This document shows, one piece after another, positions 7,670 to 8,490 of a stretch of DNA of 64,000 nt (positions are counted from its first letter, which is position 1; each line of letters opens with the position of its first letter). Made by a program: the position numbers and the translations under genes. The notes beneath the pieces are model-generated. The model worked only from the letters and a program-made list of their open reading frames with translations, did not search any database and was not told the origin of the DNA. The stretch is from Escherichia phage LQ5. The stretch is from the sequence record OR677401. One strand, written 5' to 3'.

Positions 7670-8026
7670 ATGATTAAGCAGATGACTATAGCGCTTATGT
7701 TGATTGCTCCGGGAGTATTAGCGTCACAAGTTGGTGATAGTAATAATTCAATTGTCGAGTATGCTACCCGTACAGCAAAAGATTATTGTCATCCGAGCAA
7801 TACTGAATGCATTATCGAATTCAGTTCAAAAATCACAGCTGCTTTTAAAGATGGCCAGAACGACGTAGAGCATCGCCGAATGAAAGAGAAAACTCTTTCT
7901 AAAAGATACGAGCAACGTCTAAACGTTACTGAATGTATTCCATCTGATAAAAAGTACAAAGAAATGTGCGCGTCTATGGTAGACAGACTCGTTGACTCAT
8001 ACAACCGAGGATTAAACTCTAAATGA
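7670..8026 (+). CDS. secreted hypothetical protein
   Basis: signal-like MIKQMTIALMLIAPGVLAS. Confidence 0.6.
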   Translation: MIKQMTIALMLIAPGVLASQVGDSNNSIVEYATRTAKDYCHPSNTECIIEFSSKITAAFKDGQNDVEHRRMKEKTLSKRYEQRLNVTECIPSDKKYKEMCASMVDRLVDSYNRGLNSK

Positions 8027-8490
8027 TTATTGATTATATTAAGGGCGATATCGTCGCCCTGTTTCTTCAAGGTAATAATGTTGCACACGGGTGCAACTGT
8101 TTCCACACAATGGGTTCAGGTGTAGCTGGGCAATTGGCTAAGGCTTATCCGCCTATTCTCGCTATCGATAAAACTACTTATTTAGGCAATTTGGCAAAAC
8201 TTGGCACGTTTACTCAAGCTACAGGTAATAATGGCCAAATTTGCTATAATTTATATACCCAATACGAACCAGGCCCTAATCTTGATTATGGTGCTTTAGT
8301 AAACTGTATGATAGAATTAAATCAACAAGCAAAAGGTCTTTTGTTTAAACCAAGAATTTATATCCCTCGCATCGGTTGTGGTATTGCTGGTGGTGATTGG
8401 GACAAGGTTTATCAATTGATTAATTTGTTTACTCCTGATATTAATTTAGTGGTGGTAGATTATGAAAGCACATTACCCGCATCCGTTTGA
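8023..8490 (+). CDS. macro-domain protein (ADP-ribose binding/processing)
   Basis: NVAHGCNCFHTMGSGVAGQL resembles the macro-domain N...GGGVAG signature. Confidence 0.65.
   Translation: MIIDYIKGDIVALFLQGNNVAHGCNCFHTMGSGVAGQLAKAYPPILAIDKTTYLGNLAKLGTFTQATGNNGQICYNLYTQYEPGPNLDYGALVNCMIELNQQAKGLLFKPRIYIPRIGCGIAGGDWDKVYQLINLFTPDINLVVVDYESTLPASV

Follow-up and report, generated by a model that had tools for sequence, protein, structure and literature searches.

A window of 64,000 nucleotides from Escherichia phage LQ5 (sequence record OR677401) contains, at 8023-8490, a gene for a small single-domain macrodomain protein, which its sequence and position identify as the ortholog of T4 tk.4, also named adfM (anti-DarT factor macrodomain). 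DarTG systems halt phages by ADP-ribosylating phage DNA, and the reading that we favor, at a probability of roughly 0.8, is that LQ5 Tk.4, by analogy with its characterized relatives, removes ADP-ribose from the DNA of the phage and so defeats DarTG2. An anti-DarT function is already known for this orthologous group, having been reported for the T4 member; the DarT idea is therefore supported but not new. What the present analysis adds is modest and testable, and does not amount to a new kind of system: the proteins called AdfM fall into two types, with either a glutamine or a lysine at the same active-site position.

Identification of the LQ5 gene as tk.4/adfM

The gene at the center of the analysis is the following:

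8023..8490, + strand: tk.4/adfM coding sequence (CDS); ATG start, 155 codons plus stop; single-domain macrodomain protein

LQ5 is a T4-like coliphage and a member of the genus Dhakavirus (Straboviridae, Tevenvirinae): the 4 kb around tk.4 are 99.2-99.3% identical to Escherichia phages vB_EcoM-E33 (hereafter E33) and QL01 and 96-98% identical to IME08, Bp7, WG01 and others, the named phages all being T4-like members of that genus. E33 has an identical tk.4 CDS annotated, with coordinates that coincide with those in LQ5, and both IME08 and Bp7 annotate its counterpart as tk.4. The protein aligns with T4 Tk.4 (NP_049723.1) over 155/155 residues, with 53% identity and 73% positives (E=4e-63), and the order regB, vs.1, vs, tk.4, tk.3, (tk.2), tk is common to LQ5, T4, RB32, IME08 and E33. 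The two proteins further share their length of 155 amino acids, the location between vs and tk.3/tk, and the H-G-C-N-C, Y-T-Q and P-R-I-G motifs. They differ in provenance (Tequatrovirus as against Dhakavirus), in the slightly longer C-terminal tail of the LQ5 protein and in the overlap of the gene with tk.3, which is 29 nucleotides in LQ5 and 4 in T4. By both sequence and position, the LQ5 gene is thus identified as the ortholog of T4 tk.4 (adfM). The first-pass annotation had correctly seen a macrodomain protein here but had not recognized it as this named and widely conserved gene.

Homologs of Tk.4 were recovered by tblastn in 2,733 of 50,697 phage records, mostly T-even-like myoviruses of enterobacteria, Aeromonas, Acinetobacter, Vibrio and Pseudomonas. 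The adfM identity supplies the correct name for a gene that is mostly labeled 'hypothetical protein' or 'phosphatase' in database records. One homolog, in Escherichia phage NHEP36 (record L010, 301-768), is annotated as 388-768, from an internal start; homology of the N-terminus extends to a GTG at 301, so that the deposited CDS probably lacks its 5' part.

Placement among macrodomains of the TARG1/DarG/SCO6735 class

The Pfam Macro model (PF01661) matches LQ5 Tk.4 over residues 22-132, which takes in positions 2-117 of the 118 in the profile; at 33.4 bits (E=4.9e-8) the match exceeds the gathering cut-off of 22 bits, and PHROG 335 is matched as well (E=9e-67). An AlphaFold2 model, built on a 42-sequence alignment without the T4 row, has a mean predicted local distance difference test score (pLDDT) of 92.9 and a predicted template modeling score (pTM) of 0.88, disorder being confined to the last five residues. 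In this model, compared with the Protein Data Bank (PDB) using Foldseek, the three-layer α/β/α macro fold is present. The top matches are human TARG1, yeast Poa1p, Bacteroides BT1257 and the DarG macrodomains of Mycobacterium tuberculosis (Mtb) and T. aquaticus, with template modeling (TM) scores, normalized to the query, of 0.70-0.77; the viral nsp3 Mac1 domains rank lower, and across TARG1, Poa1p, DarG and Mac1 the probability is 1.00 and the TM score 0.65-0.77. Profile searches of the PDB with the Tk.4 family recovered BT1257 (9e-20), SCO6735 (2e-17), TARG1 (2e-16) and Poa1p (8.6e-15), followed by the DarG structures from Mtb (1e-10) and T. aquaticus (4e-9). On sequence and predicted structure, LQ5 Tk.4 belongs to the TARG1/DarG/SCO6735 (ALC1-like) macrodomains and consists of this domain alone.

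The individual relatives resemble it to differing degrees. The best sequence matches in the PDB, Streptomyces coelicolor SCO6735 (5e3b) and BT1257 (2fg1/2afc), are likewise stand-alone single domains and share with LQ5 Tk.4 the H-x-C-N motif, a GCG(I/L)AGGxW loop and a glutamine at the catalytic-lysine position; however, they are cellular proteins of only ~26-27% identity, SCO6735 being DNA-damage-inducible and BT1257 having no known function. Human TARG1/OARD1 (4j5r), the top Foldseek match (TM 0.77), cleaves thymidine-linked ADP-ribose (PMC12879935), but is ~20-23% identical and has a Lys84/Asp125 dyad where LQ5 Tk.4 has Gln80 and Ala122. The DarG proteins of DarTG2 systems (Mtb, 5m3i; T. 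aquaticus, 5m31/5m3e) share the macrodomain class and fold (TM 0.70-0.72) and presumably, by analogy, also the substrate, namely thymidine-ADP-ribose in single-stranded DNA. Unlike LQ5 Tk.4, they have the catalytic K80, a C-terminal DarT-binding domain and an adjacent darT gene, whereas the LQ5 neighbors are vs and tk.3. The PADLOC DarG model correspondingly matches LQ5 Tk.4 (E=2e-6) with its macro part only (positions 3-143 of 329), and against the NCBIfam DarG equivalog model (NF048014) the protein, which ends at residue 155, scores 20.8 bits with a cut-off of 250. We considered whether LQ5 Tk.4 might be a true DarG, and this is ruled out by its lack of the DarT-binding domain, of Lys80 and of a darT neighbor.

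The predicted ADP-ribose pocket and a glutamine at the catalytic-lysine position

Active-site columns were assigned from profile-to-PDB alignments and a MAFFT alignment with the characterized enzymes. The BLAST pairwise alignment with gp104, the AdfM protein of phage PhiKZ, was off by one residue at the T-Q/T-K motif, and the multiple and profile alignments were used instead. The following features bear on the predicted pocket:

8077..8136, + strand: residues 19-38, NVAHGCNCFHTMGSGVAGQL; H-x-C-N motif and Gly-rich loop 1 of the ADP-ribose pocket
8260..8262, + strand: Gln80 codon CAA; position of DarG K80 and TARG1 K84 (the catalytic lysine) and of the essential Gln85 of SCO6735
8365..8400, + strand: residues 115-126, PRIGCGIAGGDW; Gly-rich loop 2 of the ADP-ribose pocket, with Ala122 at the position of TARG1 Asp125

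Among 43 homologs, H22, G23, N25, G33, A35, D49, G61, N76, Y78, T79, Q80, G84, P115, G118, G120 and W126 are invariant, while conservation is 90% or higher at A122, G123 and G124. The two Gly-rich loops, MGSGVA (30-35) and IGCGIAGG (117-124), in which G31, G33, G118 and G120 vary little or not at all, are predicted to hold the diphosphate of ADP-ribose. The macrodomain signature noted in the first pass, NVAHGCNCFHTMGSGVAGQL, is accordingly borne out both by the above-threshold Pfam match and by the invariance of H22, G23, N25, G33 and A35 within it.

The LYTQ80 motif of LQ5 Tk.4 aligns with MIGQ85 of SCO6735 and MIGQ of BT1257 on one side, and with LITK84 of TARG1, FPTK80 of DarG and FPTK of PhiKZ gp104 on the other. 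The glutamine is a family trait: N-x-Y-[T/S]-Q was found in 119 of 120 homologs retrieved from databases, the sole exception being a 92-residue fragment. In loop 2, GCGIAGGDW of LQ5 pairs with GCGLDRLQW of TARG1 and GCGLAGGTW of SCO6735, which sets A122 against D125, while H22 and N25 correspond to H24 and N27 of SCO6735, and N25 also to N23 of PhiKZ AdfM. Judged from these alignments, the Tk.4 family lacks both catalytic residues of TARG1 and the lysine of DarG, and its arrangement is that of the SCO6735 type. With Gln80 in place of the lysine and Ala122 in place of Asp125, catalysis is therefore probably water-mediated, with no lysine intermediate. This glutamine-for-lysine arrangement is not remarked on in the AdfM literature cited here.

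SCO6735 offers a characterized counterpart of such a site: it acts on DNA to cleave off thymidine-linked ADP-ribose, by what has been proposed to be a water-initiated mechanism, and it protects cells against DarT (PMC9411070). Its Gln85 lies at the DarG/TARG1 lysine position, and both Q85A and Q85E are inactive, H24Y and N27S mutants having also been studied; the catalytically dead Q85A still inhibits DarT (PMC9411070). In PhiKZ AdfM the N23A substitution lowers activity (PMC13309987). The phage and Streptomyces enzymes may thus share a lysine-independent route to DNA de-ADP-ribosylation.

Probable counteraction of DarTG2

The functional evidence comes primarily from T4. A T4 phage without adfA and adfN stays fully resistant to DarTG2, and a further anti-DarTG2 factor was therefore expected (PMC11825919). 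In a 2025 preprint describing HIDEN-SEQ, tk.4 was the single significant hit of a saturated T4 transposon library on a DarTG2 host, insertions in it persisting on plain K-12 while being selectively depleted where DarTG2 was present; a clean tk.4 knockout proved sensitive to DarTG2, and adfM was introduced as the new gene name (bioRxiv 10.1101/2025.11.20.689424). Its authors saw a structural likeness of Tk.4 to Mtb DarG and proposed enzymatic de-ADP-ribosylation of DNA (bioRxiv 10.1101/2025.11.20.689424). PhiKZ gp104 was independently given the same name in a 2026 Cell Reports article: in vitro it frees an oligonucleotide of the ADP-ribose that DarT2 attaches, in cells it relieves the toxicity of DarT2, and PhiKZ needs it on hosts with DarTG2 (PMC13309987). 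Activity on thymidine-linked ADP-ribose extends across DarG, TARG1, SCO6735 and the fly Targ1/3 (PMC12879935). The first-pass suggestion of an ADP-ribosylation eraser directed against DarT-like modification of DNA thus gains backing from both the macrodomain class and the orthology to a T4 gene whose knockout is DarTG2-sensitive (bioRxiv 10.1101/2025.11.20.689424).

From these lines of evidence we infer the activity and catalytic mechanism of LQ5 Tk.4, as well as its early expression, as follows. The protein would be made from the co-oriented, overlapping and tightly packed regB-vs.1-vs-tk.4-tk.3-tk block, the gene arrangement of T4 suggesting early timing. Once released by the host DarTG2 system, the toxin DarT2 ADP-ribosylates thymidines within TNTC motifs where phage DNA is single-stranded, which blocks replication. 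The Gly-rich pocket of Tk.4 (loop 1 MGSGVA, loop 2 GCGIAGG) is predicted to receive the ADP-ribose moiety, with Gln80 positioning both the substrate and the catalytic water, and the enzyme to hydrolyze the thymidine-ribose bond, restoring unmodified DNA in the manner of an orphan antitoxin.

Several points weigh against this interpretation. The support from T4 tk.4 is purely genetic and comes from a preprint, the enzymology of the Tk.4 type is carried over by analogy, and a literature search turned up no biochemical assay of any Tk.4-type protein. Identity between LQ5 Tk.4 and the T4 protein is no more than 53%, and loop 2 of LQ5 reads GCGIAGGDW as against GAGIGKGNW in T4, the LQ5 version being the consensus of the 43 homologs. 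LQ5 Tk.4 has neither the catalytic lysine nor the C-terminal DarT-binding domain of DarG. Further, Dhakavirus phages may not encounter DarTG2 or depend on tk.4 at all. Macrodomains are also promiscuous, so other or additional substrates are possible, and stoichiometric binding of DarT could provide part of the protection, because catalytically dead SCO6735, too, inhibits DarT.

If the assignment holds, this Dhakavirus should, as a carrier of adfM, resist DarTG2, which matters when the host range of therapeutic T4-like phages is predicted. T-even phages appear to carry a layered arsenal against such systems, in which AdfA binds DarT1, the NADAR enzyme AdfN clears guanine adducts and Tk.4/AdfM clears thymidine adducts.

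Alternative substrates

A role on small molecules, with Tk.4 acting as a Poa1p-like ADP-ribose-1''-phosphate phosphatase or an O-acetyl-ADP-ribose deacetylase that cleans up by-products of RNA repair or sirtuins, is unlikely. It accords with the existing labels, T4 Tk.4 being described as 'phosphatase; contains A1pp phosphatase motif', PHROG 335 as 'phosphatase' and homologs in some sources as 'O-acetyl-ADP-ribose deacetylase', and with the place of Poa1p among the best fold (TM 0.76) and profile (8.6e-15) matches; yet these names are domain-level homology transfers and do not stem from assays. Moreover, to our knowledge, T4-type RNA repair (Pnk plus RNA ligases) bypasses the Tpt1/KptA step that yields Appr>p, and the substrate is therefore not expected. 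Although such small molecules are listed among macrodomain substrates in a review (PMC9503650), no phenotype other than a DarTG2-specific one has been reported for T4 tk.4 (bioRxiv 10.1101/2025.11.20.689424), and the closest characterized relative with a glutamine site, SCO6735, is a DNA and protein de-ADP-ribosylase (PMC9411070). Small-molecule side activities of Tk.4 are possible, with nothing to mark them as the selected function.

Reversal of protein or RNA ADP-ribosylation, be it the products of phage Alt, ModA and ModB or the marks of other host defense ADP-ribosyltransferases, is about equally improbable. The first-pass annotation had proposed that the macrodomain balances Mod-type enzymes of the phage itself: the two ModA/ModB-like genes are indeed present in the same genome at 51540-52778 and match PHROG 832, but they lie ~43 kb from tk.4 with no operon link, and the proposed role of tk.4 toward them found no support. 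Alt, ModA and ModB of T4 make arginine-linked ADP-ribose, a linkage cleaved by ARH-type enzymes, and we know of no macrodomain that cleaves it. Since T4 tk.4 insertions are tolerated on plain K-12, any self-balancing role would be dispensable there. In favor of protein substrates, SCO6735 and TARG1 also remove Glu/Asp-linked ADP-ribose from proteins (PMC9411070), and macrodomains as a whole have a wide range of conjugates (PMC9503650). Less probable still is the degradation or sequestration of ADP-ribose-derived immune signals, such as gcADPR and His-ADPR of Thoeris, which had also been raised in the first pass. This idea has general plausibility, as macrodomains bind ADP-ribose derivatives and TIR-linked ones are predicted to target cyclic ADP-ribose (cADPR) (PMC9503650). 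However, a full-text literature search combining macrodomain, Thoeris and phage gave no report of a phage macrodomain acting on Thoeris signals; the macrodomains discussed in the Thoeris-related literature that was found are host effector or sensor domains, and the HIDEN-SEQ preprint does not mention Thoeris (bioRxiv 10.1101/2025.11.20.689424). Removal of ADP-ribose from phage DNA accordingly stays our preferred function for LQ5 Tk.4.

Two macrodomain subfamilies under the AdfM name

PhiKZ gp104, the AdfM of a chimallivirus, resembles LQ5 Tk.4 in being a phage-encoded single macrodomain with the conserved asparagine (N23/N25) and the same overall fold class. Unlike Tk.4, it is DarG-like, with E=1e-24 to Mtb DarG and a lysine in FPTK; PhiKZ is a nucleus-forming phage, and gp104 is imported into the phage nucleus. 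A search with gp104 gave no match to BT1257, SCO6735 or TARG1 at E<=1. Membership of LQ5 Tk.4 in the PhiKZ AdfM subfamily was considered and is ruled out: the two are 20% identical (E=8e-4), and gp104 matches DarG-type structures only. As judged from the alignments, the name AdfM thus spans two macrodomain subfamilies, the glutamine-type Tk.4 and the lysine-type gp104, which is not stated in the cited literature on AdfM.

Tentatively, and at slightly less than even odds, the Tk.4 type (nearest to SCO6735/BT1257, lysine-independent and water-mediated) and the gp104 type (nearest to DarG) could represent two independent captures of macrodomains against DarT2. Were this true, the Tk.4 type may, like SCO6735, take a wider range of substrates than a pure DarG mimic, including protein Glu/Asp-ADP-ribose and the products of other DarT variants.

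Genomic context

The block around tk.4 is laid out as follows:

6659-7117: regB
7130-7669: vs.1
7670..8026, + strand: vs (valyl-tRNA synthetase modifier), upstream of tk.4; PHROG 1256, E=2.7e-34
8007..8026, + strand: tk.4 translation start region; GAGGA Shine-Dalgarno-like element at 8007-8011 and ATGA start/stop overlap with vs at 8023-8026
8462..8674, + strand: tk.3 (DUF7202), downstream of tk.4; PHROG 2008; Pfam DUF7202, E=7e-37; named tk.3 in E33 and IME08
between tk.3 and tk: a small open reading frame
8854-9426: tk

The genes vs and tk.3 define the synteny of tk.4, vs having no functional link to it. The start of tk.4 was placed by homology with the T4 N-terminus (MIVKYIKGD in LQ5, MIIDYIKGD in T4), and the GAGGATT...ATGATT stretch upstream of and at the start is conserved in T4, RB32 and IME08; the arrangement suggests that vs and tk.4 are translationally coupled. 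At the other end, tk.3 starts 29 nucleotides before the tk.4 stop (8462-8490, + strand), and within this overlap, which is only 4 nucleotides in T4, falls the C-terminal tail of Tk.4 that the model shows as disordered (residues 151-155, pLDDT below 50). A scan for σ70-type promoters around tk.4 gave 16 sites as against 14.7 in shuffled sequence; with no excess over the latter, no promoter is claimed for the gene.

Comparison with E33 also brought out local differences along the window. The left ends are non-collinear (LQ5 ~1-3800 as against E33 30504-34300), with the Nudix and endolysin genes shifted by ~317 bases, and the offset near the Mod genes is 7 bases; LQ5 is therefore a related but distinct isolate.

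Other ADP-ribose-related genes and a hairpin within tk.4

Three further features of the window touch on ADP-ribose or on tk.4 itself:

51540-52109 and 52164-52778, + strand: two tandem paralogous ModA/ModB-like ADP-ribosyltransferase genes; PHROG 832 'RNA polymerase ADP-ribosylase', E=9e-38 and 4e-41
~2114-2563, + strand: Nudix hydrolase; Pfam NUDIX, E=7.5e-15; adjoins an endolysin gene at 2594-3082, in the position of T4 nudE/e.1
8042-8060, + strand: GC-rich hairpin AGGGCGAT-ATC-GTCGCCCT with a U-rich stretch after it; lies within the 5' end of tk.4, 19 nucleotides past the start codon

Both Mod-like genes are annotated as 'ADP-ribosylase' in E33, and a Pfam search returned no model recognizing either LQ5 protein. 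The T4 NudE-type enzyme hydrolyzes ADP-ribose, and by analogy the LQ5 Nudix hydrolase could dispose of ADP-ribose freed by the macrodomain.

The hairpin within tk.4 was flagged as terminator-like in a terminator scan; its folding gives a z-score of -2.2, and no significant covariation was found. The stem is nucleotide-identical, synonymous sites included, in T4, RB32, a48, Yersinia phage P8 and NHEP36, and is retained with one closing-pair change in GEC-3S (Krischvirus), although the proteins are 51-77% identical to LQ5 Tk.4 and the genomes AT-rich; it is absent from the Karamvirus and Jiaodavirus homologs. The hairpin may be an RNA or DNA element, or may just reflect conserved codon choice.

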